NCBI GenBank assembly: GCA_035402765.1
Contig: DAONDX010000009.1
Coordinates: forward strand, 10,350-74,349
Direction: 5' to 3'
DNA from: Candidatus Omnitrophota bacterium
Lineage (GTDB): Bacteria; Omnitrophota; Gorgyraeia; Gygaellales; Profunditerraquicolaceae
Length of the DNA stretch: 64,000 nucleotides
The position numbers and the translations under genes were made by a program. The notes beneath the pieces were generated by a model, which had not been told where the DNA came from, did no database searches, and was given only the letters and a program-made list of their open reading frames with translations. Positions 139 through 56,278 of the stretch are shown here, one piece after another (position 1 is the stretch's first letter; every line of letters begins with the position of its first letter).

Positions 139-372
139 ATGCTGTTGAATGTTTCAATCTTAAACTTAAGTAAAGTCCTTTTTGAGGGGCAAGCCGGAAG
201 AGTTATTTTGCCCGGGGAAGAAGGTGTATTTGAAATACTCCCGTTCCATAAACGTATTATGAGTCGTTTGATTACGGGAGCGGTAATTGTGGATCAGCAA
301 AGTATTCCGATAAGAAGGGGAGTAGTTAAAGCGGATCAGAATACGGTAACGATTATTCTGGAAGAAAAATGA
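139..372 (+). CDS. atpC: F-type ATP synthase epsilon subunit, N-terminal beta-sandwich domain only (77 aa)
   Basis: The translation matches the epsilon N-domain pattern (VxxP...FxG...LPGxxGxFxILPxHxxxxxxLxxGxxxV...RGxV...VTIL). The C-terminal helical hairpin is absent. It overlaps the c-subunit start by 4 nt (ATGA). Confidence 0.65.
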   Translation: MLLNVSILNLSKVLFEGQAGRVILPGEEGVFEILPFHKRIMSRLITGAVIVDQQSIPIRRGVVKADQNTVTIILEEK

Positions 373-587
373 GTAAAAATATTGCTTTAGTGATAATTTT
401 TGCTTTATGTATATTAGGGCCCTGCGCGGTTTTTGCCGCGGGCAGTTACTCCAGCATTAATGCGCTGGGCCGTAATCCGTCGTCGGCGCCTAAGATCTTT
501 ACCGCGATGATTATTGGATTAGTTTTTGCGCAAAGTTTGGCGATTGTCGCCATGTTGATCGTATTCCAGTTGTTTGGCGCCTCTTAA
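369..587 (+). CDS. atpE: F-type ATP synthase c subunit (72 aa, two TM helices). The conserved ion-binding Glu/Asp is absent: Gln sits in the aligned position.
   Basis: Two hydrophobic helices are joined by a polar loop GRNPS, which matches the c-subunit loop ARQPE. Helix 2 (IIGLVFAQSLAIVAML) aligns to FIGVALVEALPIIGVV of a Bacillus c subunit. There is no D or E in either helix. Confidence 0.7.
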   Translation: MSKNIALVIIFALCILGPCAVFAAGSYSSINALGRNPSSAPKIFTAMIIGLVFAQSLAIVAMLIVFQLFGAS

Positions 588-608
588 TACTTAAAGGAGA
601 TTAAAAAG

Positions 609-1319
609 ATGTTGATGGCTTCGTTTATTATTTTTATTTTGCTGGTTTTTGTGGTATTGGTATTTATGTTAAATAAAATTATGACGCAAAATGTTACTTC
701 GGCTACCCAGCATATTGACGAGTTGAATCAGGATTACACTAAGAAAGACGAAGATATCAACCGCCGTTGGGAAGAAGTTAAAAGGCAGGCCGAGGATATT
801 GTCCGTAAGGCTCAAGAGGAAGGTGAAAAAACCAAGATCGAATTAATTAAAGGGGCTGAAGCCGAGAAAGAGCAAATTATAAAACAAGCCCGCGTAAAAA
901 GCGAAGAGATGGTGGCACAGGCGGAGAAATCTTGCCAGGCTTTGCTTTCGGAGATCGAGGCGCGGATTGCTAAAGAGGCGATGAATAAAGCGGTGGGTTT
1001 GATCCATGATGTCCTTCCGGATAAGTTCAAACGCAACGTGCATAATGAATGGGTAGACGGATTGATCGCTAACGGTTTCAATCAGCTTAATAATATCGGT
1101 ATTCCGGATAATGTTTCGGAGGTTTTGATCTCAGCCGCATTTCCTTTAACCGCTAATCAGCGGGAGGAATTGATCAAAAAGCTTTCCAGTGTTTTGAATC
1201 GTCAGATTACCTTAAAAGAAGAGGTTGATCCAAAATTAGTTGCCGGTTTAGTGATTACGATTGCCAGCCTGGTTTTTGACGGAACCCTGAAAAACAAAAT
1301 TATGGAGAAAGCCCGCTAA
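609..1319 (+). CDS. atpF: ATP synthase b subunit fused to a delta (OSCP) C-terminal domain
   Basis: An N-terminal TM helix is followed by a long charged coiled coil, as in a b subunit. The last ~90 aa (…VDPKLVAGLVITIASLVFDGTLKNKIMEKAR) match the conserved delta C-terminal domain. An RBS AAGGAGA lies upstream and the stop abuts the atpA ATG. Confidence 0.6.
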   Translation: MLMASFIIFILLVFVVLVFMLNKIMTQNVTSATQHIDELNQDYTKKDEDINRRWEEVKRQAEDIVRKAQEEGEKTKIELIKGAEAEKEQIIKQARVKSEEMVAQAEKSCQALLSEIEARIAKEAMNKAVGLIHDVLPDKFKRNVHNEWVDGLIANGFNQLNNIGIPDNVSEVLISAAFPLTANQREELIKKLSSVLNRQITLKEEVDPKLVAGLVITIASLVFDGTLKNKIMEKAR

Positions 1320-2804
1320 ATGTCAAGCGATATAAGATCTTCGGATCCCGGAACAGTTTTTGAGATTCGTGAAGTAGGTTTTATACAGTCTGTCCGTAAG
1401 TTCATTGTTGTGGCTAAGGGGATGCCTAGCTGTATTAACGGCCAGATCGTGGAATTTGCCAGCGGCATACTGGGTTTAGTGATGGGGTTTACCGAGGATA
1501 AAGTCCAAATCCTGGTGTTGGGTGATCCCGTCGGCATCCGCGCCGGCGATGAAGTTTATAATAAGGGAAAGTCCCTTACGCTTCCGGTCGGAGATGCTTT
1601 TGTCGGCAGGGTAGTGGATGCGCTTTGCCGGCCGCTGGATGGGCAAGGCCCGGTGGCAGCCCAGGGCCAGCTTCCGGCATTTATTGTCGCTCCCGGGGTT
1701 ATGGATCGACAACCGGTAAATCAAACTTTGGAATCCGGTACTTTGATTATTGACGCGATTATCCCCTTGGCCAAAGGTCAAAGGCAGCTTTTAATCGGCG
1801 ACCGGATCACCGGGAAAACCAGCGTCGCTTTAGATGCGATAATTAATCAGAAGGGTAAGAATGTCATTTGTATTTACTGCTGCATCGGCAAGCCTTATTC
1901 CAGCCTGGTTAAAGTTTTAAATGTCCTGCGTGAAAAAGAAGCCTTAGATTATGTGATTATAGTTTCCGGGGTAGCCAGCGTTTCAACCGGAGAACAGTAT
2001 TTGGCTCCTTATACTGCCTGTACTTTGGGTGAGTATTTTATGAGCCAGGGCAAAGATGTGCTTTTAGTTGCCGATGATCTAACTAAACATGCCTGGGTCT
2101 ATAGGCAAATTTCTCTTTTGTTGGAACGGGCACCCGGCCGGGAGGCATATCCCGGGGACATTTTTTATTTACACTCTCAGATGATGGAACGTGCCGGGCT
2201 CCTGAAAAAAGACCTCGGCGGCGGTTCAATGACCTTTTTGCCGATCGTGGAAATCCTGCAGGGAGATTTAACCGGATATATTCCCACCAATTTGATTTCC
2301 ATGACCGACGGACAACTTTATTTCTCTACCGGCCTTTTTAACAAAGGGGTAAAGCCGGCGATCGATTTTGGTTTATCGGTTTCCCGTATCGGTAATAAAG
2401 CTCAATGGCCGGCGGTTAAAGGCTTAAGCAAATCTTTACGTCTTGATTATCTGCAGTATAAAGAACTTTTGCAGATGACCCAATTGCGTACTTCCGGGCT
2501 TTCCAAAGAAGCCGAAGCGCGGTTGCGTCGAGGGGAGGCGATCAGCCAGCTGATTACCCAGGATAAAAATCGTCCGGTATCTGTTGAAGAGCAGATCATT
2601 TATTTATATTCGCTGAATCATGGTTTGTTGGATAGTTTATCTACCGCTCAGATCCGCCAGTTTCGTTTGAATATTTTAGCTTATGTTCAGCAGGTCAAGC
2701 CTGAATTCTGTTTAAAAATCCGGCAGACCAAAGAACTTAGCGAAGATCTCCGGGTGATGCTGGAAGAGGCGCTCACGGCATATTTAAGAGAAGAGGTTAA
2801 ATAA
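1320..2804 (+). CDS. atpA: F-type ATP synthase alpha subunit
   Basis: Walker A GDRITGKTS, CCIGKPYSS and overall alpha-subunit architecture are present in 494 aa. Confidence 0.95.
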   Translation: MSSDIRSSDPGTVFEIREVGFIQSVRKFIVVAKGMPSCINGQIVEFASGILGLVMGFTEDKVQILVLGDPVGIRAGDEVYNKGKSLTLPVGDAFVGRVVDALCRPLDGQGPVAAQGQLPAFIVAPGVMDRQPVNQTLESGTLIIDAIIPLAKGQRQLLIGDRITGKTSVALDAIINQKGKNVICIYCCIGKPYSSLVKVLNVLREKEALDYVIIVSGVASVSTGEQYLAPYTACTLGEYFMSQGKDVLLVADDLTKHAWVYRQISLLLERAPGREAYPGDIFYLHSQMMERAGLLKKDLGGGSMTFLPIVEILQGDLTGYIPTNLISMTDGQLYFSTGLFNKGVKPAIDFGLSVSRIGNKAQWPAVKGLSKSLRLDYLQYKELLQMTQLRTSGLSKEAEARLRRGEAISQLITQDKNRPVSVEEQIIYLYSLNHGLLDSLSTAQIRQFRLNILAYVQQVKPEFCLKIRQTKELSEDLRVMLEEALTAYLREEVK

Positions 2805-2808
2805 GCTT

Positions 2809-3669
2809 ATGCAGACCATGGCGGTCATTAAAAAAGATATGGAGTTTAACCAGGGGCTTTCTTCTTTAATTGAGGTGTTGAAGAATATCGCGGTCTCCCA
2901 ATACCGTTCTTTAGAGCATAGATTCGGCGGTTTTGATAAGTTTATGAGCGCTGTGGAAAGTTATTTTGAATTTATTGATTTTAAAGCTGTCCGGCATCCA
3001 TTCCTGGCTCCGACCAATAAAACTCAAGTGGTTGTGGTAGTTACCTCCGACGGCGGTCTTTTGGGCGGTTTAAATATGCAGGTAGTCTCCCGGGCTTTAG
3101 CGGAACTGGCGAGTAATCCCGGCCAATTAGTGGTGATCGGTGAGCGGGGTAAAATGTATGCGCGGGAAAGCGGAGTTCCCTTTGTAGCTTACCCTGGGAT
3201 CAACGACGATGACCGGTTGAACCAGGCTTTTCAGCTAAGGGATTATTTGTTCAGGAACGCCCTGAGGGGAAAGTTCGGATTATTGAAAGTAGTGTACCCT
3301 CACCCGGTATCTTTTACGGTTCAGCGGGTTGAGACAGTAACTTTTTTTCCTTTTTTACCGGAATTTTTAGCCGCTAAACCTCAGGGTCCCGAGAAACTTG
3401 CGATTTTGCAAAATGTGATCTTTGAATCAAAAATCAGCGATATTGTGGAGTATCTGGTTTATTTATGGATGGGCCAGCGGCTTTATGATATTTTTGGCTT
3501 AAGCCGCCTGTCAGAGTTTGCCGCCCGTTACGTCCATCTTGAAGACAGTCTGCGGCGGCTTAAAGAGATGGACGCAAAGCTAAAGCTGCAGTATTTCCGT
3601 GTCCGGCATGAAATTATCGATCAAAGCATGCGGGAATTGTTTAGCGCCAGGCAGTTGTTTAATGCTTAA
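2809..3669 (+). CDS. atpG: F-type ATP synthase gamma subunit
   Basis: At 286 aa it sits between alpha and beta, with the N- and C-terminal helices typical of gamma. Confidence 0.85.
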   Translation: MQTMAVIKKDMEFNQGLSSLIEVLKNIAVSQYRSLEHRFGGFDKFMSAVESYFEFIDFKAVRHPFLAPTNKTQVVVVVTSDGGLLGGLNMQVVSRALAELASNPGQLVVIGERGKMYARESGVPFVAYPGINDDDRLNQAFQLRDYLFRNALRGKFGLLKVVYPHPVSFTVQRVETVTFFPFLPEFLAAKPQGPEKLAILQNVIFESKISDIVEYLVYLWMGQRLYDIFGLSRLSEFAARYVHLEDSLRRLKEMDAKLKLQYFRVRHEIIDQSMRELFSARQLFNA

Positions 3670-3705
3670 TGACCAGATCTGAGATTTTTTATGGGAAGAT
3701 AAACT

Positions 3706-5103
3706 ATGAATAATAAAGCTAAAGGTAAGATTACCGCGGTGCAGGGCCCGGTGGTCGACGTAAAATTTAATTCGGCCGATGATGTGCCGAATGTTTACGC
3801 GATGTTACTTACCCATACTATCGAAGGCAGCGAAGTTTTTTTGGAGGTTGCCGAACATTTACCGGGTAATGTCGCCCGGTGTATTTCGATTAATTCTACG
3901 ACAAATATTCAACGTTATGCCGAAGCTATTTTTTACGGTTCTTCCATTCAAATTCCGGCCGGGGACGGGCTTTACGGTCGCTTGATTAATGTCGTAGGTC
4001 AGCCGATTGACCAGGGAGGGCCGGTTGAACATCAGGAAAAAAGCTCGATCCGTAAAACCGATATGGGCAGCCGGGTCCGGGTCAGTAAAAATAAGGATGA
4101 GCGCCGCAGTTACGAAGTTATGGAAACCGGGATCAAGATTATCGATTTGCTGGCTCCGCTGGTTAAAGGAAGCAAAACCGGTATTTTAGGAGGCGCCGGG
4201 TTAGGCAAAAGCGTGCTGACCCTGGAGATTATCCAGCATATCGTCAAGCGTTATCAGGGGTCTTGCGTTTTTGTCGGTATCGGAGAACGTATCCGCGAAG
4301 GGAACGAATTGTATTATGAATTAAAGAATCATGATGTTCTATCTAAAACAATGATGGTATTCGGCCAGATGAACGAGCCGCCGGGGGCGCGTTTTGCTGT
4401 GGCAATGACCGGGATCACGATGGCTGAAGCGGTGCAGAAAAAGAACCAGGATGTTTTGATGTTTTGTGATAATATTTTTCGTTTTGTCCAGGCCGGTAGC
4501 GAAATCTCAACCCTTCTGGGGCGGGTGCCTTCAGAAACCGGGTATCAGCCTACTTTGCTTTCTGAAGTTAGCGAATTTCATGAACGGATCCGTACGACTA
4601 AGGATGCCGGAGGGTCAATTACTTCTATCGAGGCCGTTTATGTCCCGGCTGATGATTTAACGGACCCTGCAGTTGTGGCGATTTTTAGTTTTTTGGATTC
4701 AGTATTAGTTTTGTCCCGCGAACGGATCCAGCTGGGTTTGTACCCGGCGATTGATCCGCTTTTATCCAGTTCTTCCAATCTGGATATCGATATCGTCGGA
4801 AAACGCCATTTTGAGGTTGCCCAAGGGGTAATCAGGATGTTCCAGCGTTACGAAGAATTGCGGCGCATTGTCCTGGTAGTCGGGATCGACGAACTTTCAT
4901 CCAGCGACCGGATTATCTATGAACGGGCCCGGAAAATGCAAAATTTTCTTACGCAACCGTTTTCCGTTGCGGAAGCTTATACCGGCAAAAAAGGGGTTTA
5001 TGTAACGATTGAACAAACTCTGGAAGGCTGTGAAAAGATTATGTCCGGCAAAATGGATAGCCAGCCGGAGCAGGGATTTTATTTGATCGGGGCTTTACCC
5101 TAA
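3706..5103 (+). CDS. atpD: F-type ATP synthase beta subunit
   Basis: P-loop GGAGLGKSVL, catalytic GIGERIREG and DELSSSD (the DELSEED equivalent) are present. A ~30-aa insertion follows the N-terminal barrel. Confidence 0.95.
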   Translation: MNNKAKGKITAVQGPVVDVKFNSADDVPNVYAMLLTHTIEGSEVFLEVAEHLPGNVARCISINSTTNIQRYAEAIFYGSSIQIPAGDGLYGRLINVVGQPIDQGGPVEHQEKSSIRKTDMGSRVRVSKNKDERRSYEVMETGIKIIDLLAPLVKGSKTGILGGAGLGKSVLTLEIIQHIVKRYQGSCVFVGIGERIREGNELYYELKNHDVLSKTMMVFGQMNEPPGARFAVAMTGITMAEAVQKKNQDVLMFCDNIFRFVQAGSEISTLLGRVPSETGYQPTLLSEVSEFHERIRTTKDAGGSITSIEAVYVPADDLTDPAVVAIFSFLDSVLVLSRERIQLGLYPAIDPLLSSSSNLDIDIVGKRHFEVAQGVIRMFQRYEELRRIVLVVGIDELSSSDRIIYERARKMQNFLTQPFSVAEAYTGKKGVYVTIEQTLEGCEKIMSGKMDSQPEQGFYLIGALP

Positions 5104-5156
5104 ACCTTCGGAAAATAAACTAAATTCACCTAATGACCTGTTATTTAAAATAAAAT

Positions 5157-7316
5157 ATGCCTAAAAAAATTGATTTACAATTAGCGGAAATTTTAGTTGA
5201 AAAAAAACTGATCACCCGTGAAAATGTCGCAGAGCTTCTGCTGGAAGCTGACCGCCTAAAACAGGACCTGCGGCAGGTTTTAGTAAAACATAGTTTGTTC
5301 TCTGAACAAGCCGTCCTGGATTTATTAGCGGAAAAATTAAAACTTACCTGTGTTAATCTTAAGGAGTTATCAATTGACAGATTAATTATTAACAAGGTTC
5401 CTTTAAAAATAGCTTCTTATTATAAATTCATTCCGTTATTCTTAAAAGGCAGGACTTTAACCATCGCTGTAGCTTATCCCCTGGATATTATGACGCTGGA
5501 TGAAATCAGGACTCAGTTAGGTTTAGACATTGAAACGGCTTTGGCTTGTGCCGCCGATGTGGCGGATGATTTAAAAAAATATTATGGTTTAGCCGCTGAT
5601 ACTTTGGAAAAAATAAATTCACAGCAGGTTTCAACTTCGGCTAATGACCAGCAGAGCAGAAACCAGGAGGGGGTAGAGGATATTGAGAAACAGGCTACCG
5701 ATGCCTCGGTAATTAAATTAGTTAATCAAATAATTTTAGAGGCCTGGCGGAAACGGGCCACGGATATTCATATTGAGCCTTACCGGCAAGGCCTGGCGCT
5801 GCGTTATCGGATTGATGGCCTGCTTTATGATGCCAATATTCCCGGTGAAATAAAAAATTTTATGAATGCGATTATTTCCCGGATTAAAATCATGTCTAAC
5901 CTGAACATTGTTGAACGCCGGCTTCCCCAGGATGGCCGGGCAATTGTCAGAGTTCAGGATCAGGTTTTGGATTTGCGGATTTCGACTATTCCCACTCCTT
6001 TCGGCGAAAGTTTGGTTATCAGGATTCTGCCTACCCAGATGCTTTTTAGCTTGGAGAAATTAGGTTTATCCAAGAATGAGCTGCAGATTTTCGAAGGTTT
6101 GGTACAGAAACCGCACGGTATAATTTTTGTTACCGGTCCGACGGGGAGCGGTAAGACCACTACGCTTTACGCCTGTTTGAGCAGGATTAACACTAAGGAC
6201 CGCAAGATCATCACGATCGAGGATCCTATCGAGTATGAGATGAGCGGGATTACTCAGATCCAGGTCCAGCCGGAGATCGGTTTGGATTTTGCCCGCGGGC
6301 TGCGCAGTATCTTAAGGCATGATCCGGACGTGATCATGGTGGGAGAAGTCAGGGATTTTGAAACAGCCGAAACCGCTATCCGGGTGGCTTTGACCGGACA
6401 TTTAGTATTTTCTTCCGTGCACACTAATGATGCGGCTAGCGGCATTGCCCGCTTACAGGATATCGGAGTTGAGCCGTATTTAATTGCTTCCAGTGTTGAG
6501 GCTTTTATTGCGCAACGGTTAATCCGGGTTATCTGTCCGGAATGCCGGTTTGAAGATAAGCAGGCGCCTTTAGAGTTAAGAGAATTAATCGCCCGTGATC
6601 TGGGAATAAAATTAGAAGAAGTTAAAATCTTCCGGGGTAAAGGATGCCCTCATTGTAATTCTACGGGTTATTTTGGCCGCACAGCAATCTATGAAATTTT
6701 AATTGTGGATGAACTGACCAAAGAAATGATTCTCAAGAAAGCTTCTTCCGACCAGATCAAGCGGTTGGCTGTATCTAAAGGGATGCGTACTTTAAGGCAG
6801 GACGGTTGGAGAAAAACCATTGCCGGGGTCACTACTTTTGAGGAGGTGATCCGGGTAACTTCCGCCGAAGAGGAGGTTAGTATTAAAAAAGATACCTCAA
6901 CCGCTGAAAGCAGCTATCCTTATCAAGAGGCCAATCCTGAGCCGGGGACATTAAGCCGGCGGGTTTACCGGCGGCTGGATAAACAGGTGAATGTGAGCTA
7001 TAAGGTCTTTGAAGTAGAGAATGAATTAATTAAACGCAAAGATGCTGTTGAAGAGGCAACGGCCAGTAAAAATATTTCTGCCGGAGGCCTGCTCTTTGTA
7101 GCGAAGGATAAATTAATTATCGGTTCAATACTTGAGCTAAAGATCCAATTACCTAATAGCGATGAGCTGATTGAATGTCTAGCCAGAGTGGTCAGAGTGG
7201 AAGAGCTGATTGAACAAAGAGAATATGATGTTGCCGTCTGTTTCCTGGATTTAACCGGCGCCGAACGGATAAGATTAGATAAGTTTGTAGGGCAGAAACC
7301 GGAGGGCAGGTTATAA
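5157..7316 (+). CDS. pilB: Type II secretion / type IV pilus assembly ATPase (GspE/PilB family) with a C-terminal PilZ domain
   Basis: It has a GspE N-terminal domain, Walker A GPTGSGKTTT, and the tetracysteine CPEC...CPHC motif. The C-terminal ~135 aa carry PilZ motifs RRVYRRLD (RxxxR) and NISAGG (D/NxSxGG). Confidence 0.9.
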   Translation: MPKKIDLQLAEILVEKKLITRENVAELLLEADRLKQDLRQVLVKHSLFSEQAVLDLLAEKLKLTCVNLKELSIDRLIINKVPLKIASYYKFIPLFLKGRTLTIAVAYPLDIMTLDEIRTQLGLDIETALACAADVADDLKKYYGLAADTLEKINSQQVSTSANDQQSRNQEGVEDIEKQATDASVIKLVNQIILEAWRKRATDIHIEPYRQGLALRYRIDGLLYDANIPGEIKNFMNAIISRIKIMSNLNIVERRLPQDGRAIVRVQDQVLDLRISTIPTPFGESLVIRILPTQMLFSLEKLGLSKNELQIFEGLVQKPHGIIFVTGPTGSGKTTTLYACLSRINTKDRKIITIEDPIEYEMSGITQIQVQPEIGLDFARGLRSILRHDPDVIMVGEVRDFETAETAIRVALTGHLVFSSVHTNDAASGIARLQDIGVEPYLIASSVEAFIAQRLIRVICPECRFEDKQAPLELRELIARDLGIKLEEVKIFRGKGCPHCNSTGYFGRTAIYEILIVDELTKEMILKKASSDQIKRLAVSKGMRTLRQDGWRKTIAGVTTFEEVIRVTSAEEEVSIKKDTSTAESSYPYQEANPEPGTLSRRVYRRLDKQVNVSYKVFEVENELIKRKDAVEEATASKNISAGGLLFVAKDKLIIGSILELKIQLPNSDELIECLARVVRVEELIEQREYDVAVCFLDLTGAERIRLDKFVGQKPEGRL

Positions 7317-7318
7317 TC

Positions 7319-8539
7319 ATGGCTAATTATAATTATCGCGCTAAAAAAGGACTGCAAGAGATAATTAACGGTACGATCGAAGCGGTTTCTGAAAAAGAGG
7401 CAATTGAAAAAATCAGTGCGCTGGGTTATCTTCCTATCTCTCTGGAAGAAGCTAAAAATCAGCAGAAATTTTCTCCTGCTCCTGTAGCGTATAAAACGCA
7501 CGGCAGGATCAAGGGCAGGCAAATTACTACTTTTTCCCGGCAGCTTTCCAGCCTTTTAAAATCCGGAGTCCCCATACTGTCGGCGATAAACATTATTAGA
7601 GAACAGTCGGAAAACGTGAATTTAAAAGCCGTCCTTTATGATATTTACAATGTAATTAAGAACGGGGGAACATTTTCTTCGGCTTTGGAGGTTTATCCGA
7701 AATATTTTCCCGTTTTATATATTGCCATGGTGCGTACGGGGGAAAATAGCGGAGCTTTAGCCGCTTCGCTTTTGAGGATCGCCGATTACCGGGCTAAACA
7801 AGAAGAACTGATTTCACGTTTCCGGATGGCGATGGCCTATCCCATATTGATGGCCCTGGTGGGGATAGCTACGGTAGTATTTATGCTTACTTATGTAATG
7901 CCCAGATTAATGGGGATATTCTCTAGTCTAGGGCAGAATTTACCGTTGCCTACCCAAATTCTGTTAGCCCTGAGCAAGGGGTTGCGCCAATGGTGGCCTT
8001 GGATGATTTTAATTATCTTGGCCGCAGTTGTTTTGATCAAGCAGCAGTTAAATACTAAAATGGGCAGGTTAACCTGGAGCGTTTGTAAACTGCGTATTCC
8101 TATATTCGGAAATTTCGCGCTCAAAGCCGATCTGGCTTGTTTTAGCCGGACTTTGGAATTACTGCTTAAAAGCGGCCTGCCGATTTTAAGCGCTTTACAG
8201 ATATCCGTGCAGGTATTGAATAATGAAGTGATCAAAGAAAAATTGATGAAGAGTTACCGGGATCTAGAGCAGGGTGGATCTTTGGGACGGAGTTTGAAAG
8301 ATTCTAAATTGCTTCCCTTGTTTATGGTGAATTTGATCAGCATCGGAGAAGAATCCGGGAATCTGGCTTCTTCTTTGGGGGAAGTCGCCGATTCCTATGA
8401 ACGCGATACCGATGAAATGATCAAGGTGATGAGCAGTTTACTTGAGCCGCTAATGATTTTAGCAATGGGTTTAATCGTCGGTTTTATTGTGATCGCGATG
8501 CTTTTGCCGATCTTCGAAATTAACCTGATGTCTAAATAA
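7319..8539 (+). CDS. pilC: Type II secretion / type IV pilus inner-membrane platform protein (GspF/PilC family)
   Basis: It is 406 aa with duplicated GspF domains and three TM segments. It lies immediately downstream of the ATPase. Confidence 0.9.
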   Translation: MANYNYRAKKGLQEIINGTIEAVSEKEAIEKISALGYLPISLEEAKNQQKFSPAPVAYKTHGRIKGRQITTFSRQLSSLLKSGVPILSAINIIREQSENVNLKAVLYDIYNVIKNGGTFSSALEVYPKYFPVLYIAMVRTGENSGALAASLLRIADYRAKQEELISRFRMAMAYPILMALVGIATVVFMLTYVMPRLMGIFSSLGQNLPLPTQILLALSKGLRQWWPWMILIILAAVVLIKQQLNTKMGRLTWSVCKLRIPIFGNFALKADLACFSRTLELLLKSGLPILSALQISVQVLNNEVIKEKLMKSYRDLEQGGSLGRSLKDSKLLPLFMVNLISIGEESGNLASSLGEVADSYERDTDEMIKVMSSLLEPLMILAMGLIVGFIVIAMLLPIFEINLMSK

Positions 8540-8543
8540 CTTA

Positions 8544-9404
8544 ATGTATAATAGAAAATTAAAATTATTTTTATTTATTTTTTTAGGAATTTTCAGCTTA
8601 ACTGCCGGTTATGCCGATGATTGGAAGGAGAAAAAAAGCGAACATTTTATCGTGTATTTCGAGCAGGATGATGCTTTTGCCCAGTCAGCATTAGACGGCG
8701 CGGAAAAAAATTACCGCAATATCGCTAATGATCTAGGATATGCGCGTTATTCCGAATTTTGGACTTGGGACAAAAGAGTAAAGATCTATATCTATCCGGA
8801 TCATGACGCTTTTTTAAGAGCTACCGGCCAGCCAAGTTGGTCAGAAGGCATGGCGGATTATACCAATAAACAAATAATCAGTTATGTCTGGGGTAAAGGT
8901 TTTATCGAATCTCTCCTTCCGCATGAAATAGCGCATTTGGTTTTCAGGGATTTTGTGGGTTTTAAAGGCGAAATCCCCCTGTGGCTGGATGAAGGGGTGG
9001 CCCAATGGGAGGAGGAAGCTAAAAGAAAAGAAATCAAGAATTTGATCCAGCGTTATTTTCAACAGGATAATTTGTTGTTGGTTAGCGATATCATGAAATT
9101 GAATATTTCGAATTTAAAAGATAAAACCGGGGTGTTGATCAGGGCGACCAAGACCAAAGACGGCAAAGATGGGGTGTTGTTTTTAAGCTCAAACAATCTA
9201 ATCGAAATTTATTATATGGAATCGGTTTCTCTGATCGGCTACTTGATCGAAAAGTTCGGTTCCGCTGCTTTTTCCGGATTTTGCCGTGAATTGCGCGACG
9301 GTAAAAGCGTAGAGGATGCTTTGAAAATATCCTATCCTTTATACATACACAATATTCAGGAATTTGAGGATGGATGGAGAGAATATCTGAAGGCAGGCAA
9401 TTAA
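8544..9404 (+). CDS. Secreted peptidase-MA-like protein (HExxH) of unknown function
   Basis: A signal peptide is present and HEIAHLV is followed by a downstream LDEG, consistent with a gluzincin-like fold. It is embedded between pilC and the pseudopilin genes. Confidence 0.45.
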   Translation: MYNRKLKLFLFIFLGIFSLTAGYADDWKEKKSEHFIVYFEQDDAFAQSALDGAEKNYRNIANDLGYARYSEFWTWDKRVKIYIYPDHDAFLRATGQPSWSEGMADYTNKQIISYVWGKGFIESLLPHEIAHLVFRDFVGFKGEIPLWLDEGVAQWEEEAKRKEIKNLIQRYFQQDNLLLVSDIMKLNISNLKDKTGVLIRATKTKDGKDGVLFLSSNNLIEIYYMESVSLIGYLIEKFGSAAFSGFCRELRDGKSVEDALKISYPLYIHNIQEFEDGWREYLKAGN

Positions 9405-9428: not shown

Positions 9429-9863
9429 ATGAACAAATTGTATAAGTTTCAAGCGGCAGTGAAAAATCCCGGGGGGTTTACCCTGATCGAATTGATGCTG
9501 GTGGTGGTAATTATCGGAGCGTTAGTGGCGATGGTTACGCCCAGACTTGCCGGTAGAGGGGAACAGGCCAGAGCGGCAGCCGCCAACGCAGATATCAATG
9601 CTAATATTGCTACGGGCCTGAAGCTTTATGAATTGGACAACGGTAATTTCCCGAGTACTTCAGAGGGGTTGAATGCTTTATTGGTTAAACCTGATTCCGC
9701 CCGGAATTGGAACGGCCCATATTTAGAAAAAAAACCCGTTGATCCCTGGGGTAAAGAGTATGAATATAAATCTCCCGGAGAGCATCGTAAAAGCGATTAC
9801 GATCTCTATTCTTTAGGCAAAGACGGAACGGAAAGTGCCGATGATGTCAATAACTGGGAATGA
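9429..9863 (+). CDS. gspG: Major pseudopilin, GspG-like, with a prepilin cleavage/methylation motif
   Basis: GGFTLIELMLVVVIIG is a class III signal peptide. The body matches GspG (NADINANIATGLKLYELDNGNFPS...DPWGKEYEY...DYDLYSLGKDG). Confidence 0.85.
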   Translation: MNKLYKFQAAVKNPGGFTLIELMLVVVIIGALVAMVTPRLAGRGEQARAAAANADINANIATGLKLYELDNGNFPSTSEGLNALLVKPDSARNWNGPYLEKKPVDPWGKEYEYKSPGEHRKSDYDLYSLGKDGTESADDVNNWE

Positions 9864-9882
9864 GGGGTCTTGCAATTTAAAG

Positions 9883-10293
9883 ATGCCGGCCGGTAAAATA
9901 TCCAATCAAAGATCTAAAAAAAAAGGTTTTACTCTTCTGGAAGTAATGATCGCTACTGCCGTTCTGGCGTTGGGGGCGACATTAATTTACCAGTCTTTTT
10001 TTATCGCCGTTAATTCTTTTAATTACTACTCCACGCTTTTGAAAGTATCTCCCTGGATGAATGAAACGATCTGGCAGGCTCAGAATCGCCTCCGACATCT
10101 GGGTTCGGGCGCGACGCTGTCTTCCGGCGGGCTGCTGAATATTAATAATAAAGATCTAAATTGGAGTTTATCCTATAATTCCCTGGATCAAACGGATAGT
10201 TTTTACCGGGTTAATTTAACGGTGGTTTGGCCGCAGGGAACCCGGCAGGTGAAATTATCAAGGTCTGCATATGCGATTTATACGAAAAAATAA
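9883..10293 (+). CDS. Minor pseudopilin (prepilin-type N-terminal domain)
   Basis: KKGFTLLEVMIATAVLALG is a prepilin motif. The start is placed at the ATG at 9883; the ORF-track start at 9835 would overlap gspG. Confidence 0.6.
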   Translation: MPAGKISNQRSKKKGFTLLEVMIATAVLALGATLIYQSFFIAVNSFNYYSTLLKVSPWMNETIWQAQNRLRHLGSGATLSSGGLLNINNKDLNWSLSYNSLDQTDSFYRVNLTVVWPQGTRQVKLSRSAYAIYTKK

Positions 10294-10855
10294 ATTAGGT
10301 TTTAGCCTGGTGGAGTTGTTGGTGGTTACCGGGATGCTCGGGGTAATTTCTTTAGCCATATTTGCGACTTTTAACAATGGGTTTAAGATCTGGAAAAGGA
10401 TCAATCAGCCATTGGCGGATGAGGATTTGGGATTTCTCTTCGATAAACTGGCAGTGGATTTGAACAATTGCCTAAAGTCTAACAGCATTTCTTTTTCCGG
10501 TAGTGAAAATAATTTAAGTGTTCCTACCCTGGTGGATAGCCCGGATCTGGCGGCCAGGACCGTGGGGGCGGTTGTTTATTCCTACGATCAGCCAGCCGGT
10601 TTATTGATCCGGCAGCCTAATGATTTCAGCCAGCTTTATCGCCACCATGAGGATAGCGGAGTTGTCCTGCTTAAAAATATCAGGTCCTTAAAATTCGAGT
10701 ATTATTATTATGATAAACTAAAGTCAGAGTATATTTGGAAAGAAGAATGGTCACAGGCGGGCTTGCCGCTAGCGGTAAGGGTGAGTTTAAATTTAAGGGA
10801 TGCATCTGAAAATGATAAAATTATCCGGACGTTTAATATTCCTATCGGAGGCTAA
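10271..10855 (+). CDS. Minor pseudopilin (prepilin-type N-terminal domain)
   Basis: The prepilin motif KLGFSLVELLVVTGMLGVISLAIFA is present. Confidence 0.6.
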   Translation: MRFIRKNKLGFSLVELLVVTGMLGVISLAIFATFNNGFKIWKRINQPLADEDLGFLFDKLAVDLNNCLKSNSISFSGSENNLSVPTLVDSPDLAARTVGAVVYSYDQPAGLLIRQPNDFSQLYRHHEDSGVVLLKNIRSLKFEYYYYDKLKSEYIWKEEWSQAGLPLAVRVSLNLRDASENDKIIRTFNIPIGG

Positions 10856-11849
10856 AAGCCGAGGCAGCATCCTGATCGTTGCTTTGTGGTCGCTTTGTCT
10901 ACTGTCGGCATTTGCGGTTATTTTGAATTATCAGGTGCGGCAGGAGCTGGCTTTAGCCATTCGCCTTGATCAGCGGGACCGGCTGCGCCTGATTGCCGAA
11001 GCCGGAGTCGATCAGGCAATTATGGAATTAAAAAGCAACCCGGAAAAAATGTATTATTGCTTAGCCGATAGCTGGAGCAATAATCCGGCCGCTTTTAAAA
11101 ATATTCAAGTGGGCAGCGGAGAGTTTAGCCTGACCCATAGCTATCCGGAAAAAAAATCCGGTCTGATGCAGACCGGTTACGGCTGTGTCGATGAAGAAAG
11201 TAAAATTAATATTAATAAGGCTGAGTCCGGAGTATTGGAACGCCTTTTTAGAATTGTTTTAGCTTGTGATGAAATCCAGGCCCAGGAGTTGGCAGCTAGT
11301 ATACTGGATTGGAGAGATGAGGACAGCGCGCTCTCTATTCCGACGGGCAGCGCGGAAGATGATTATTATACTAACCTGCCTTTTCCTTATGCCGCGAAAA
11401 ATTCAGCATTTGAGGTATTGGAAGAATTACTTTTAGTTAAAGGATTTAGTGATAATGTTTTTGAAAAAATAAAAGACTATGTTACTATCTATGGAGAAGG
11501 CAGAGTCAATATTAACACCGCAAATGAAGTTGTGCTTTTTGCTTTAGGGCTGGATGAGAAGATCGTGGATAGGATCGCAGCTTATCGCGCCGGAGAAGAT
11601 GAATTGATCGGCACGCTGGATGATAATGTTTTCGCAGCCGCTTCGGACATTGTGCCGACCTTGAGTCAAATTTATCAGTTCAGTCCTTCCGAGCTGGAGC
11701 GGTTTAATCTGGTGGCTAATTTGTTTTTAGGAGTTAGCTCCAGCAATTTTTTAATTAAGGCTACGGCTAGTTTGACGGAAAAGAATTCACAAACCGTCTT
11801 TTGTGTAGTCAAGCGTGACGGTAAGATTCTTTACTGGCGGGAAGATTAA
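10800..11849 (+). CDS. gspK: GspK-like minor pseudopilin
   Basis: An N-terminal RGSILIVALWSL matches the GspK signature (GxALLxVLW). The C-terminal ININTANEVVLFALGLDEKIVDRIAAYR is the helix-hairpin-helix region typical of GspK. The true start is probably an internal Met near 10812. Confidence 0.65.
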   Translation: MHLKMIKLSGRLIFLSEAKSRGSILIVALWSLCLLSAFAVILNYQVRQELALAIRLDQRDRLRLIAEAGVDQAIMELKSNPEKMYYCLADSWSNNPAAFKNIQVGSGEFSLTHSYPEKKSGLMQTGYGCVDEESKININKAESGVLERLFRIVLACDEIQAQELAASILDWRDEDSALSIPTGSAEDDYYTNLPFPYAAKNSAFEVLEELLLVKGFSDNVFEKIKDYVTIYGEGRVNINTANEVVLFALGLDEKIVDRIAAYRAGEDELIGTLDDNVFAAASDIVPTLSQIYQFSPSELERFNLVANLFLGVSSSNFLIKATASLTEKNSQTVFCVVKRDGKILYWRED

Positions 11850-11853
11850 ATAA

Positions 11854-13332
11854 ATGTTTAAATTTAATATGGATAATTTAAAACTTTTGTCCGGATTAAC
11901 TAACCAGGAATTGGTGGGGGTTAATTTTAACGGGAACAGCTTAAAAATCTCCCATATTAAAATTTCGCCCAATCGTAAAGAAGTAGTTAATCTGCTGAAT
12001 TTAGACATTACCGCTCTTAACGATATAGATATCGCTAAGGCGATCCAGGTTGCCATCGGCGCACTCCGGGGCAGAAAAGTTGAGATCGTGGATGTGGTTC
12101 CGACACAGCTGGTGATCACGAAAAATATCGAAATTCCCTCCATTGACAAGAAAGAGATTAAGGAAATTCTTAATCTGCAGGCCGGCCGGCATACCCCCTA
12201 TTCAAGAGAGGAAATCATTGTTGATTATGTCGAGATCGGCACCTATAAACATAGCTATACTAAGGTGCTGTTGGTGATTGTTGCCCGCTCCGTGGTCAAA
12301 CGGCATTATGAAATATTGGACCGGGCGGGTTTTAAGTTAAAAAAGGCTCTTTTGGCTTCTGAAGGGATGGCACTGGCAATTTCTAAAACCTTAAGGCTAG
12401 AGACAGATAATGCGCCGGTTAATATACTGCACGTTGATGAAAATTTTACGGATTTTAGTATTGTCCTTAAGAATAAGGTTATATTTATTCGTTCTATTCC
12501 TATCGGGACTTCTCAATTAAAGAATGAAAAAGAAGTTTATCAGATTAAATTTGTAGATGAACTGAAAAGGTCTCTGGAGGCTTATTTAGGCGGAGACATT
12601 GAAATAAGTCCGCATATGTTAATTCTAACCGGCGCGGAAGAAGAACTCAAAGAGATTGAAAGCCTGCTGAATAACACGCTGCATTTACCGGTAAAAACTA
12701 TGCCGTATGCTAATATCTTTGGTATTTCAGAATTGGCCCGCGGAGCAATGGCTAAATTCCGGCAGCTGTCTTTTTTTGATGTGATCGCGCCGATTTTAAA
12801 TTGCGGAGAGATGAAAATTGACCTTATCCCGGAAGAAGCCAGGGTGCGCCGGTCCATTGAAGAGAGAGGCAAGGATTTGATTAAAACCGGGATTTTTATT
12901 TTATCCATTTTGATTGTCACTTTTTTTATTCTGACCAGCAAAATTTATTTTAAGGGCGCGCAACTGAATAAATTGGAAAGCAGGTATGCGACAATTAATC
13001 AGGAAGCGAAGAAATTAGAAAAAGATCTTTTAAAGGTCGGTTTGGTAAAAAATTACCTGACCAACCGCGGGTATTCTTTAGAGATACTTACGGAATTGCA
13101 TTCTTTGGTTTCTGAAGATATAGAGTTAAGCGAAATCCGCTATGATGGGGATAAATTTTCGGTAAAAGGCACGGCCAATGCCATGTCTTCAGTTTTTTCT
13201 TTTGTTGATCTTATGGAAAAATCAAAATATTTCAAAGAAGTTAAAACCCGCTATACTACTAAGCGCAAAGATGGTTTAAGAGACTTGACGGATTTTGAAA
13301 TTGTGGCGCAGACCGAAAGGCCGCAAGAATGA
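11854..13332 (+). CDS. PilM-like actin-fold assembly protein fused to a PilN-like TM and periplasmic segment (GspL-equivalent)
   Basis: A ~340-aa cytoplasmic PilM-like domain is followed by a single TM (IFILSILIVTFFIL) and a ~130-aa periplasmic coiled-coil tail. Confidence 0.65.
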   Translation: MFKFNMDNLKLLSGLTNQELVGVNFNGNSLKISHIKISPNRKEVVNLLNLDITALNDIDIAKAIQVAIGALRGRKVEIVDVVPTQLVITKNIEIPSIDKKEIKEILNLQAGRHTPYSREEIIVDYVEIGTYKHSYTKVLLVIVARSVVKRHYEILDRAGFKLKKALLASEGMALAISKTLRLETDNAPVNILHVDENFTDFSIVLKNKVIFIRSIPIGTSQLKNEKEVYQIKFVDELKRSLEAYLGGDIEISPHMLILTGAEEELKEIESLLNNTLHLPVKTMPYANIFGISELARGAMAKFRQLSFFDVIAPILNCGEMKIDLIPEEARVRRSIEERGKDLIKTGIFILSILIVTFFILTSKIYFKGAQLNKLESRYATINQEAKKLEKDLLKVGLVKNYLTNRGYSLEILTELHSLVSEDIELSEIRYDGDKFSVKGTANAMSSVFSFVDLMEKSKYFKEVKTRYTTKRKDGLRDLTDFEIVAQTERPQE

Positions 13333-13898
13333 TAAAACTGCCGAATCTTAAGGCGCTCCAGGTGTTCCTGGGGCGTTTATCAAAAAAAGATAAAATAATT
13401 TTTTATATTGCCGTTTTTGTTGTTTCTTTGATGGTCTTGGACCGGGCGATCATCTCGCCGGTATTTAATAAGATCAGGTCCTTGAATAAAGAAGTTAAAG
13501 ATGAGCAGGCGACGATTAAGAAAAATTTACGTATCCTGGCCCAGAAGGACAGGATATTATCGGAAGGTGCCAAATACAGTTCTTTTCTGGGCGATGCCCA
13601 ACTTAGCGATGATGAACAGATAACTTTGGTTTTAAAGGAAATTGAAAGTTTAGCCAGCAAGAGTTCGGTATATCTGGTGGATATGAAACCTTCCGGGACA
13701 AAAGAATCAGGTTCTTCAAAAAGGATCATGATCAACTTGAATTGTGAAGCCCAGATGGAGCAGCTGGTTGATTTTATGTATAATTTAGAAAATTCGAATA
13801 TTTTGCTTTCTATCGAGAAATATCAACTGACTCCTAAAACTAAAGAATCCAGTGTAGCAAAATGCAGTATTTCGGTTTACAAGGTAGTTGCGTTATAA
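13329..13898 (+). CDS. GspM/PilO-like bitopic assembly protein
   Basis: It has an N-terminal TM, a coiled coil and a C-terminal alpha/beta domain. It lies directly after the GspL-like gene in a translationally coupled operon. Confidence 0.5.
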   Translation: MIKLPNLKALQVFLGRLSKKDKIIFYIAVFVVSLMVLDRAIISPVFNKIRSLNKEVKDEQATIKKNLRILAQKDRILSEGAKYSSFLGDAQLSDDEQITLVLKEIESLASKSSVYLVDMKPSGTKESGSSKRIMINLNCEAQMEQLVDFMYNLENSNILLSIEKYQLTPKTKESSVAKCSISVYKVVAL

Positions 13899-19173: not shown

Positions 19174-20346
19174 TTGATGAAGAAAAAAAAGTGTAATCTG
19201 GCTGTTTTGTTATTAATTTTACTTTTACCGGTAAAGATCTTTGCGGGTGAGGATGTACAGCCGCCTAAACTGGTTATTTTTTATTCGCCTAGTTGCCATG
19301 AGTGTCTGAGGGTTAAGCAAGAGGTGATGCCAAAGATTGAAAAAGAATTCCAAGGAAAGATTATTTTCCAGTATAGTGATGTCAGCCAGATAGAGAATTA
19401 TAAGATACTGGTAGGTTTATTACAAGATTATTCCTCCCGGCTTAAATACCAGGTCCCGCTTTTTTATCTGGAAGGTAAGTTTTTAACCAGCGAAGGGGAA
19501 GTTGAGAATAACCTGCGTAGTTTTATTTCCGCCGGATTAAATAGAAAGTCCCCGCCAGGATCAAAGCCGGTAGATTTAGTGGCTTACTTCAAAAGTTTTG
19601 TCCCGGCGGCAGTTATCTTTGCCGGGCTTAGCGACGGGATCAATCCTTGCGCTTTTACCGTTATTGTATTTTTTATTTCTTTTTTGGCTTTACAGGGCTA
19701 CCGTAAAAAAGAACTGATTTTAATCGGTTTAACATTTATTCTTGGGGTATTCCTGACTTATCTTGGCCTGGGGCTGGGAATTTTTAATTTCTTTTACCGT
19801 TCTTCAGGATTTTGGATAATTACGCAATTATTAAATATCATGATCGGAATCTTAAGCATTGTCCTGGGGATTTTCGCGGTTTATGATTTTATTGAATTTA
19901 AGAAAACCGGCTCGACCGCAGGGCTGCTCCTGCAGCTGCCTAAGCCCATAAAAGAACGCATTCATATCCTGGTAGGTTTCTTTTACCGCAAAAGCCATCA
20001 GGAGAAGCAGGAAAAATCCAAGCCGGTTTTAGCCAAGCTTATTTTGAGCGCCCTGATTACCGGATTTTTAGTTTCACTCCTGGAAGCGGTTTGCACAGGC
20101 CAGGTATATCTGCCGACGATATCCTTTGTTCTGAAATCTACTTCGTTAAAACTGGAGGCCCTGGGATATCTTTTGTTATATAATATTATGTTTATTATTC
20201 CGCTGGTTGTAATCTTGATTTTGGCCCTGCTGGGTATTACCAGCGGGCAGTTTTCCGGCTTTTTAAAGAAGTACCTGGGATTGATTAAAATTTTAATGGC
20301 GGTTTTGTTCTTTAGTTTAGGGATATTCCTGCTTTGGAGGGCTTAA
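19174..20346 (+). CDS. Thioredoxin-fold domain (CHEC) fused to a DsbD/CcdA-like transmembrane thiol-disulfide transporter
   Basis: After a signal peptide, SPSCHEC carries a CxxC motif. The multi-TM region has Cys in GINPCAF and AVCTGQVYLP, as in the DsbD_2/CcdA family. Confidence 0.7.
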   Translation: MMKKKKCNLAVLLLILLLPVKIFAGEDVQPPKLVIFYSPSCHECLRVKQEVMPKIEKEFQGKIIFQYSDVSQIENYKILVGLLQDYSSRLKYQVPLFYLEGKFLTSEGEVENNLRSFISAGLNRKSPPGSKPVDLVAYFKSFVPAAVIFAGLSDGINPCAFTVIVFFISFLALQGYRKKELILIGLTFILGVFLTYLGLGLGIFNFFYRSSGFWIITQLLNIMIGILSIVLGIFAVYDFIEFKKTGSTAGLLLQLPKPIKERIHILVGFFYRKSHQEKQEKSKPVLAKLILSALITGFLVSLLEAVCTGQVYLPTISFVLKSTSLKLEALGYLLLYNIMFIIPLVVILILALLGITSGQFSGFLKKYLGLIKILMAVLFFSLGIFLLWRA

Positions 20347-53730: not shown

Positions 53731-53796
53731 CGGTTATTAAGTTTTGATTTGCCCGGCCTGCCGCCGGGAATGCCGCCTGCAAATAAATCATGCCTT

Positions 53797-55164: not shown

Positions 55165-56278
55165 GATAATCTGTTGTTCGGCGGTGATTTTATTAACTTT
55201 TTCTGCCCTTCAAGCTGCGGAAATTCCGCGTAAGGAAAATATGAAAAATAATCCGGCTAAAAATTTAAGTCAAGCTAATTTGGAGAACCCCTTCGGAGTT
55301 TTAGAATTTCTGCATTGGAGCCACTCCTGGAATAATTATAAATATCCCGGTGACCGTGATCTGAAAAAAGCTATTTCTTTAATGCAAAGTGCCGGAGTAG
55401 GCTGGATACGGTTAGATTTTTTATGGGAGGATATTGAGCCGCAGGAGGGCAGGTTTGATTTTGCCAAATATGATAATTTGGTCAAATTGCTTACCGATCG
55501 AGGCATTAATATTTTAGGCATATTGCATTATAGTACCAATTGGGCTTCTTCCTGCGGGGAATGGAACTGCCCTCCTAAAAATAATAAAATATTTGTTAAT
55601 TATGCCGCTCAAGTTATTCAGCGTTATAAGGGTCAGGTTAGCTATTGGGAGGTTTGGAATGAACCGGATTCAGCGATCTATTGGAAACAGCAGGATTGTC
55701 TGAAATCCTATTGTGAGTTATTAAAAGAAGTTTATGTCGCGGCTAAAAAAATCGATCCGGAATGTAAAATTCTAAACGGGGGGATTGCTAACGGATTGGC
55801 CAGTATTAACCATCTGTATGACAATGGGGCTAAAGATTATTTTGATATATTGAACTTGCATTTTTTCGAAAGTCCGCTGCATGGTAAGAATGCTATAAAG
55901 GCGGTGGCTAGTTACCCTAAGCTGGCTTATAAAATAATGGTACGTAACGGGGATGCCCGCAAGAAAATTTGGATTACTGAAATTGGCTGCCCGGGGGTTA
56001 GAGCGGGATTAAAAACTAATAATTGGTGGCTGGGCCAGAATCCTAATGAGCAGCAGCAGGCGGTATGGGTAAAGGAAGTTTATGCTGAATTATTAAAAAA
56101 TCCGCAGGTGGCCAAGATTTTTTGGGCTTTTTTCCGCGATACCAAAAAACATTGGGATAACGGAGTCGATTATTTCGGTTTGGTGCGCTGGGATTACACG
56201 CCTAAGCCTTCTTTTAAAGCCTACAAAAAGTATTTTGGGCAGTGGAAAAGTACGAAAGGAGTTCCATCGGATTCTTGA
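55070..56278 (+). CDS. Clan GH-A glycoside hydrolase (GH5/GH39-like), probably secreted
   Basis: YWEVWNEPD carries the NEP acid/base motif and KIWITEIGC the TE nucleophile motif. A signal-like segment KKLINKIICCSAVILLTFSALQAAE is present. The 5' end overlaps the previous gene by 95 nt, so the start is uncertain. Confidence 0.6.
   Translation: MFPTGSGWLNRNWGSRLISEIISTLNKKLINKIICCSAVILLTFSALQAAEIPRKENMKNNPAKNLSQANLENPFGVLEFLHWSHSWNNYKYPGDRDLKKAISLMQSAGVGWIRLDFLWEDIEPQEGRFDFAKYDNLVKLLTDRGINILGILHYSTNWASSCGEWNCPPKNNKIFVNYAAQVIQRYKGQVSYWEVWNEPDSAIYWKQQDCLKSYCELLKEVYVAAKKIDPECKILNGGIANGLASINHLYDNGAKDYFDILNLHFFESPLHGKNAIKAVASYPKLAYKIMVRNGDARKKIWITEIGCPGVRAGLKTNNWWLGQNPNEQQQAVWVKEVYAELLKNPQVAKIFWAFFRDTKKHWDNGVDYFGLVRWDYTPKPSFKAYKKYFGQWKSTKGVPSDS

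Follow-up and report, generated by a model that had tools for sequence, protein, structure and literature searches.

The window analysed here, a stretch of 64,000 nt from a Candidatus Omnitrophota bacterium (GenBank assembly GCA_035402765.1, contig DAONDX010000009.1, positions 10,350 to 74,349 of the forward strand), carries an operon for an F-type ATPase at positions 139–5103. The c subunit encoded in this operon has a Gln at the position of the ion-binding carboxylate, and no gene for subunit a was found at the locus. Comparison of 80 species-level Omnitrophota genomes indicated that the carboxylate of c is dispensable across the whole family. Because subunit a is lacking and the carboxylate is no longer required, the coupling of rotation to H+ or Na+ flow would be impossible. 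We concluded that the enzyme is most likely a mechanical ATPase for an envelope machine rather than the ATP synthase of the cell.

The c subunit and its carboxylate column

The coupling of ions to rotation in canonical F-type ATP synthases centres on the carboxylate of subunit c and on subunit a, and to our knowledge no residue of c is more conserved than this carboxylate. The c protein of the window contains no Asp or Glu in all of its 72 aa. In a MAFFT alignment with the c subunits of E. coli, Bacillus PS3, and I. tartaricus (reference sequences entered by hand; the genuine E. coli atpE, NC_000913.3, starts identically), Gln55 (CAA, 531–533) was aligned to D61, E56, and E65. An earlier model-made reading of the letters alone, here called the sequence-only reading, had claimed a Gln at the helix 2 carboxylate and helices free of Asp and Glu. 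The alignment and the sequence confirmed both points, and the Gln codon, which had been counted as 54, is codon 55.

The Pfam family PF00137 matched the window c protein with 28.3 bits (cut-off 24 bits). An AlphaFold (AF2) model built from 121 sequences showed a helical hairpin (residues 3–35 and 37–70, pLDDT 88.9) with Q55 in the middle of helix 2. When this model was compared to the PDB by Foldseek, the top 25 matches listed were all F-type c-ring subunits, with TM-scores up to 0.82, and two V/A-type proteolipid chains followed at ranks 26 and 43. With its helical hairpin, its polar R-N/Q-P loop, and its likeness to c-ring protomers, the protein has the fold of an F-type c subunit; it presumably forms a ring.

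Ten contigs, drawn from at least five samples (ENA, Logan, JGI), encode the identical 72 aa protein, with the same neighbours in all of them. A database search returned 391 homologs. The 120 that were listed are 75%–96% identical, many are named Candidatus Omnitrophica or Omnitrophota, and they carry Glu (64) or Gln (56) in the carboxylate column. We also scanned one genome per GTDB species with a profile of the c alignment, which resulted in 80 loci from 80 species-level Omnitrophota genomes. Homologs with the same change from Glu to Gln were found here in 35 species; the column held Glu in 38 species, Val in three, and Gly, Ala, Ser, or Phe in one each. The codons for both major residues varied as well (CAG 26, CAA 9, GAG 21, GAA 17). 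With seven residue types and an entropy of 1.53 bits over the 80 species, column 55 resembles an unconstrained lipid-facing position. Across the same species P18, V21, I30, G34-R35-N36-P37-S38, and Q67 were invariant, and N4 and F66 nearly so. This pattern indicates that the c hairpin apart from column 55 is under strong constraint.

A relocated or compensating carboxylate was sought in the membrane spans, and none of the 42 c sequences without Glu at column 55 had an Asp or Glu there. Covariation between position 55 and other positions of c was weak. Lys or Asp did not occur at column 55 in any of the 80 species, and the constraint on this column appears to be simply "uncharged". Such a constraint would fit a Glu that stays protonated all the time for want of anything to remove the proton.

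To place the changes at column 55 we used a neighbour-joining tree of concatenated alpha and beta sequences from 54 species and the window, with E. coli as outgroup. Fitch parsimony resulted in 13 changes including the outgroup, i.e., at least about 12, a count that is approximate since the tree is rough. The deepest branches carry Glu, and several contrasts between Glu and Gln separate close relatives. The 55 locus-derived sequences were monophyletic relative to E. coli in this tree, which did not include alpha of respiratory Omnitrophota enzymes. On this evidence the carboxylate was clearly lost multiple times and independently.

A profile search of 1.84 billion representatives gave only 28 clusters at E ≤ 1e-10. 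Among these, a non-acidic residue at column 55 was confined to sequences of the Omnitrophota family and to single hairpins of two multi-hairpin fusion proteins, and every canonical c subunit among them had Glu. The profile also matched very long proteins with many c-like hairpins (P0131, P0154, P0161, P0151). Such proteins had 15 matched stretches in 1139 aa, 10 in 968 aa, and 8 in 631 aa, all with Glu at the carboxylate column, and they look like giant fused proteolipid rotors. Two family-like c proteins of 138–140 aa (P0125, P0134) consist of two tandem hairpins, both with Glu and with an ARNP loop. They are related to the Omnitrophota family and form a variant with duplicated c.

Subunit a, the F1 head, and the stalk

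No subunit a was found in the 64 kb window, where the polytopic open reading frames (ORFs) with Pfam matches were LptF/G, FtsX, Mem_trans, DoxX, an M48 peptidase, and GspF. The sequence-only reading had likewise noted the lack of this subunit near the operon. A phmmer search with E. coli AtpB over 10 kb on either side of the 80 loci gave nothing better than E = 0.9, and apart from GspF no recurring polytopic protein was seen in these regions by a crude hydropathy screen. The sensitivity of both searches is limited, and together they reach 10 kb per locus plus the 64 kb window. A 390 aa protein with about nine transmembrane (TM) segments and without a Pfam match is encoded at 19174–20346, outside of the cluster; it is not conserved beside the operon in other species.

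The ORF upstream of epsilon was ruled out as a disguised or fused subunit a. Its C-terminal module of about 250 aa is composed of a beta-sandwich, a three-helix bundle, and a single TM helix, and neither matched a Pfam family nor resembled E. coli AtpB. The description of this partial ORF as hydrophilic in the sequence-only reading was too simple, since the 40 residues visible in the window begin with the end of a TM helix (AGVLFFSW); that it is not a subunit a stood. Extra ORFs between epsilon, c, and b were found in L066 (1540–3002), L074 (9471–10004), L082 (3218–3508), and L034 (8332–8691), with the operon order otherwise kept. Inspected by eye, they were short and without multiple hydrophobic spans, and were rejected as candidates for subunit a. 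Some of these inserts resemble nucleotidyltransferase/toxin–antitoxin, transposase-like, or GIY-YIG-like proteins, a resemblance noted by eye only and not by a library scan.

The beta and alpha subunits of the window show 47.6% and 39.4% identity to the E. coli proteins. In the alignment to E. coli the Walker A motif, the catalytic Glu-Arg of the GER motif, the Walker B Asp, and the Arg finger of alpha were all intact. The Walker A Lys, the catalytic Glu-Arg, and the Walker B Asp of beta as well as the alpha Arg finger were conserved in 55 of 55 species checked, whatever the state of the c subunit. The sequence-only reading, which had seen intact P-loops and the catalytic GER Glu, was borne out on this point, and the F1 head is, judged by its residues, catalytically competent. 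Alpha (537/572 bits) and beta (566 bits) scored above the NCBIfam equivalog cut-offs for atpA and atpD, and their closest solved structures were ordinary bacterial F1 (2qe7, 462 bits for alpha and 483 bits for beta). The scores of gamma, epsilon, c, and b/delta were far below the equivalog cut-offs. Gamma was strongly divergent, with 41 bits to the best gamma in the PDB and 81 bits against TIGR01146, which has a cut-off of 194.

Of delta, only the C-terminal domain (approximately E. coli residues 103–168) is left in the b/delta fusion, and the N-domain is missing. The N-terminal helix of alpha, the usual docking site for delta, is truncated. Epsilon has no C-terminal helices, and the DELSEED motif of beta reads DELSxxD in the family. 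These features indicate that the regulatory and stator-attachment parts are reduced. In two loci a head subunit was interrupted: gamma was split into two ORFs in a metagenome contig otherwise identical to the window (L003, 6466–7325), and alpha was split in the closest GTDB genome (L007, 6839–8323). Both splits are probably assembly frameshifts.

Surroundings of the operon and related loci

The features of the locus are listed in Table 1. ORF calls and Pfam matches agreed with the sequence-only reading on the gene order, epsilon (N-domain only)-c-b/delta-alpha-gamma-beta, and the coordinates on the tight coupling it had described, with an overlap of 4 nt between epsilon and c and the alpha ATG directly abutting the b/delta stop. 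All six ATPase genes are intact in the window. Gaps of 0–53 nt separate the genes along the run from the giant ORF with its module through epsilon, c, b/delta, alpha, gamma, beta, GspE, and GspF to the peptidase, and GspE starts 53 nt past beta. No terminator-like site was present in the intergenic gaps of the cluster when the window was scanned for terminators. Hits of the promoter and terminator scans were at or near chance level and indicated no operon boundary within the cluster. ORF calls and TM counts were crude.

Table 1. Features of the ATPase locus and its flanks in the window.
Feature	Position	Strand	Remarks
Giant ORF, last 40 codons	1..123	+	End of conserved C-terminal module: beta-sandwich, three-helix bundle, one TM helix, short cytoplasmic tail with AFPE motif
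Epsilon subunit, 77 aa	139..372	+	Pfam ATP-synt_DE_N; beta-sandwich N-domain only, C-terminal inhibitory helices absent
c subunit, 72 aa	369..587	+	Pfam ATP-synt_C; helical hairpin, Gln55 (CAA, 531-533) at carboxylate column
b/delta fusion, 236 aa	609..1319	+	Pfam ATP-synt_B and OSCP; N-terminal TM helix, b-like coiled coil, delta C-terminal domain only (OSCP positions 100-166)
Alpha subunit, 494 aa	1320..2804	+	Pfam alpha; Walker A GDRITGKT and Arg finger intact; N-terminal delta-binding helix truncated
Gamma subunit, 286 aa	2809..3669	+	Pfam gamma; full length, very divergent
Beta subunit, 465 aa	3706..5103	+	Pfam beta; Walker A GGAGLGKS, catalytic GER Glu, Walker B Asp intact; DELSEED changed to DELSSSD
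GspE/PilB-type secretion ATPase	5157..7316	+	MshEN N-domain, C-terminal PilZ domain; directly after beta also in related loci
GspF/PilC platform protein	7319..8539	+	
Peptidase_MA_2-like protein	8544..9404	+	Follows GspF, conserved
Four pseudopilin genes	9429..11849	+	GspG-like 9429-9863; N_methyl pseudopilin 9835-10293; GspJ-like 10271-10855; GspK-like 10800-11849
PilM-PilN fusion (GspL-like) and GspM/PilO-like	11854..13898	+	11854-13332 and 13329-13898; end of cluster

The order epsilon-c-b/delta-alpha-gamma-beta-GspE-GspF(-peptidase) is shared by essentially all loci that extend far enough, with the exception of a rearranged deep subfamily (L083, L084, L086). Nearly all 80 loci have a giant ORF on the same strand upstream of epsilon that is still open at the 10 kb limit. 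It ends 0–30 nt before epsilon in many loci and up to about 230 nt before it in others. In L001 the giant ORF exceeds 3250 aa and is still open at the end of the contig; its last approximately 3250 residues gave weak Ig-like matches only. In about 19 loci the last 270 aa or so form a separate ORF (262–310 aa) directly upstream of epsilon, with an N-terminal signal or TM segment. The C-terminal module has 65 homologs in the database, all of them hypothetical proteins without Pfam domains, and W214, F218, F233-T234-W235, and Q238 in and next to its TM helix are invariant.

A small GspE-like ORF of about 150–165 aa (annotated by phmmer) lies between beta and the full-length GspE gene in most species, e.g., at 14847–15314 in L010, and is missing in the window (5104 to 5156) and in its closest relatives. 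Some single metagenome-assembled genomes (MAGs) contain two complete copies of the locus with giant ORF/module, ATPase, and GspE/F (L013 and L016 in STD1_64; L029 and L082 in NC_groundwater_961), and in one of these genomes the two copies belong to very different subfamilies. Many genomes with the Omnitrophota-type locus are labelled as Planctomycetales/Planctomycetia, Margulisiibacteriota, Eisenbacteria, or Deltaproteobacteria (L012, L019, L021, L024, L026, and others; P0324, P0069). These labels probably reflect taxonomic mislabelling of MAGs and not a wider distribution.

Beyond the cluster the window contains housekeeping genes. GC skew is uniformly and strongly positive (0.03 to 0.2 in each 2 kb bin over 1–64000), and nearly all genes are on the plus strand, which suggests a position of the window on a single replichore whose genes are strongly co-oriented. 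One ORF (53749–55164) fuses a Maf-like domain to a Peptidase_M48 domain and is followed by a glycoside-hydrolase-like protein (55070–56278) with weak matches to several glycoside hydrolase families.

Loci of this kind have been described before. Seymour et al. 2023 (PMC10066038) reported "symbiotic" F-type ATPase clusters beside type-4a pilus clusters in all classes of Omnitrophota. In Velamenicoccia such clusters were found in 56 of 111 species, and in 57 of 66 contigs they lay within 10 kb. The ATPase was classed as non-respiratory, and its phylogeny separated it from the respiratory F-ATPases of Omnitrophota. Like the members of that class, the window derives from Omnitrophota and has an F-type ATPase operon within 10 kb of type IV pilus/type II secretion system (T4P/T2SS)-like genes; it is a member of the published "symbiotic" (sF-ATP) locus class. 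In contrast to our description, PMC10066038 makes no link between the ATPase operon and the 3' end of a giant ORF, and no mention of the c subunit, subunit a, the c-ring, or the carboxylate was found in its main text and supplements. It labels the enzyme "type 2/3", a label that the scores of the window against the Type 2/3 models do not support. West-Roberts et al. (10.1101/2023.11.21.568195) linked giant genes to T2SS-like loci and did not mention the ATPase. A 2026 preprint (10.64898/2026.06.07.730766) found alpha/beta in 125 of 176 complete genomes and gamma in only 30, concluded that F1Fo is incomplete, and reported V/A-type ATPases in 70%–99% of most Gorgyraeia; the terms K02108, K02110, and atpB gave no matches in its main text and supplement. 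The gamma subunit is probably "missing" there because it is so divergent. As far as could be found, an architecture without subunit a that retains an ion-blind c has not been described. The giant ORF with its anchor module upstream, the T2SS/T4P-like cluster downstream, and the published "symbiotic" class (PMC10066038) provided the decisive context that went beyond the sequence-only reading.

Relation to known ATPases and mode of action

Like canonical F1Fo, the window has an alpha3beta3 head with Walker A Lys, catalytic Glu, and Arg finger, alpha and beta above the atpA/atpD cut-offs, a c fold that matches F-type c-rings, and the canonical order c-b(delta)-alpha-gamma-beta. It differs by the lack of subunit a at the locus, of an obligatory carboxylate in c, and of the delta N-domain, so that delta is not of full length, and by an epsilon that is truncated from the two-domain form and shifted to the first position in the operon. 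With the N-ATPase (alternate F1Fo, atpDCQRBEFAG) it shares a long b, the lack of a separate delta, and the character of a second, accessory F-type enzyme, and the best NCBIfam match of b/delta was alt_F1F0_F0_B. Membership in this group was rejected by the scores against the N-ATPase models (TIGR03305/03324/03323/03322/03321), which were 489 versus a cut-off of 752 for beta, 521 versus 750.5 for alpha, 31.9 versus 282 for gamma, 14.7 versus 131 for c, and 51 versus 225 for b. Unlike the N-ATPase operons, the window has no AtpQ, AtpR, or subunit a genes, and the gene order is different.

The F1-like X0 ATPases of Mycoplasma are probably the closest analogue in the working mode. Type 3 is required for the function of MIB-MIP (PMC12994834; Type 3 with MIB-MIP also in PMC3369863), and the Type 2 or G1-ATPase drives gliding of M. 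mobile (PMC11864180). The likeness to the window lies in the F1-derived alpha/beta/gamma/epsilon head, in the large surface proteins that are encoded beside it, and, as presumed for the window, in its non-chemiosmotic use together with these proteins. In Type 3, too, alpha lacks the N-terminal delta-binding helix, and a partner protein carries a signal peptide as well as a TM anchor at its C-terminus (PMC12994834). In contrast to the window, the Mycoplasma clusters described have neither c nor b/delta, and in Type 3 a 12-TM protein and further, unrelated subunits are found instead. Alpha and beta of the window stayed far below the NCBIfam cut-offs for Type 2/3 (396 versus 600, 420 versus 850, 288 versus 520, 404 versus 570), and these memberships were rejected. 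The match of beta to G1-beta of M. mobile (338 bits) was its weakest in the PDB, where canonical F1 betas reached 407–483 bits. The cut-offs of the models for type III secretion/flagellar export ATPases (FliI/SctN), 380–620, were not reached either, with alpha at 161–174 bits and beta at 176–196 bits. The architecture looks like an intermediate between F1Fo and Mycoplasma F1-like X0.

We consider it probable that the enzyme is a non-chemiosmotic accessory ATPase, an F-type derivative that hydrolyses ATP and serves an envelope machine. The second, non-canonical rotary ATPase that probably works in the hydrolysing direction, which the sequence-only reading had proposed, is supported. The F1Fo-derived enzyme keeps a competent alpha3beta3-gamma-epsilon head, a c hairpin presumed to form a ring, and a shortened b/delta stalk, with ATP hydrolysis as the likely working direction. 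The gamma-epsilon-c assembly may act as a membrane-embedded rotor or as an anchor or base, and would perform mechanical or regulatory work on the co-transcribed machine without an ion gradient. The load would be the giant surface protein, whose conserved C-terminal module anchors it in the inner membrane, together with the T2SS/T4P-like apparatus. A contact between the c-ring and this module is an attractive guess, given that the ends of the c helices are invariant, as are residues in and beside the TM helix of the module. Several points weigh against our interpretation. Glu is kept in about half of the species (38 of 80), where a residual ion-related role is possible. The absence of subunit a covers 10 kb per locus and the 64 kb window and was established with AtpB phmmer and the crude hydropathy screen only. 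The fold search with the C-terminal module gave generic helical-bundle matches only, and the number of state changes is approximate because the tree is rough. Ring formation, the direction of hydrolysis, and the identity of the load are all inferred.

A more specific form of this interpretation, which we regard as tentative, is an ATP-driven rotary shaft across the membrane that passes torque to the giant protein or the pilus. The c-ring, freed from ion coupling, would be spun by F1, and the ends of c (N4, F66-Q67), which face the periplasm in the canonical topology, could engage the anchor module or the adjacent pseudopilus platform. In a diderm bacterium, cytoplasmic ATP hydrolysis would thereby drive the movement, tensioning, or extrusion of a giant adhesin or enzyme fibre outside the cell. 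If true, an F-ATPase would have been turned into a motor of surface machinery a second time, independently of Mycoplasma F1-like X0, and the system, with c and b/delta still present, would be an evolutionary intermediate.

It is rather unlikely that the c-like protein and b/delta are membrane tethers only, with an F1-like head that acts at the membrane as a non-rotary or self-contained ATPase without a working ring, for instance a regulator or a chaperone/unfoldase for export of the giant protein, comparable to the FliI/FliJ export ATPases. The reduced stator parts and the dispensable carboxylate would fit such a role, and F1-type and type III secretion export ATPases are homologous, with FliI/SctN models matching alpha and beta at E 1e-50 or better. 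In known F-ATPases the cytoplasmic loop of c makes the contact to gamma and epsilon. This loop, GRNPS, is invariant, and together with a full-length gamma and the epsilon N-domain it argues for an intact rotor assembly. The invariant helix ends of c point to a specific partner and not to a passive tether.

We think it improbable that the enzyme is a chemiosmotic F-type ATP synthase or ion pump with subunit a encoded elsewhere and with ion binding by Glu or at an unconventional site. The scores of alpha and beta above the atpA/atpD equivalog cut-offs and the Glu at the canonical position in 38 of 80 species are compatible with it, and the absence of subunit a applies to the surroundings of the loci and not to whole genomes. 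On the other hand, the operon has no subunit a in 80 species and is joined by secretion genes downstream, the delta N-domain and the epsilon C-domain are missing, and the published phylogeny sets the "symbiotic" ATPase apart from the respiratory F-ATPases of Omnitrophota (PMC10066038). Switching between Glu and Gln among close relatives implies that the two states are functionally equivalent, which also counts against chemiosmotic coupling. Canonical carboxylate-dependent binding of H+ or Na+ is impossible with Val, Gly, Ala, Ser, or Phe at the site and no acidic residue in the spans. The same residues, and the lack of a compensating Asp or Glu in the 42 non-Glu sequences, excluded the lineage-specific ion-binding solution that the sequence-only reading had offered. 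Its further option of a sequencing error, like an assembly error or a decaying pseudo-operon, is practically out of the question: a single G-to-C change does convert GAA to CAA, and gamma of L003 and alpha of L007 are split, but the identical c protein occurs in independent assemblies, Gln is found in 35 species with both of its codons, the six window genes are intact, and the catalytic residues are conserved in all 55 species.

The phylum keeps the c hairpin, the loop for contact with gamma and epsilon, and a working F1 under strong constraint while the carboxylate drifts. This provides sequence-level evidence for the published guess of a non-respiratory ATPase, and names concrete candidate partners, the anchor module of the giant protein and the T2SS/T4P-like cluster. 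Pathway calls that count this alpha/beta pair as "ATP synthase", or that miss the divergent gamma, misstate the energy metabolism of Omnitrophota.

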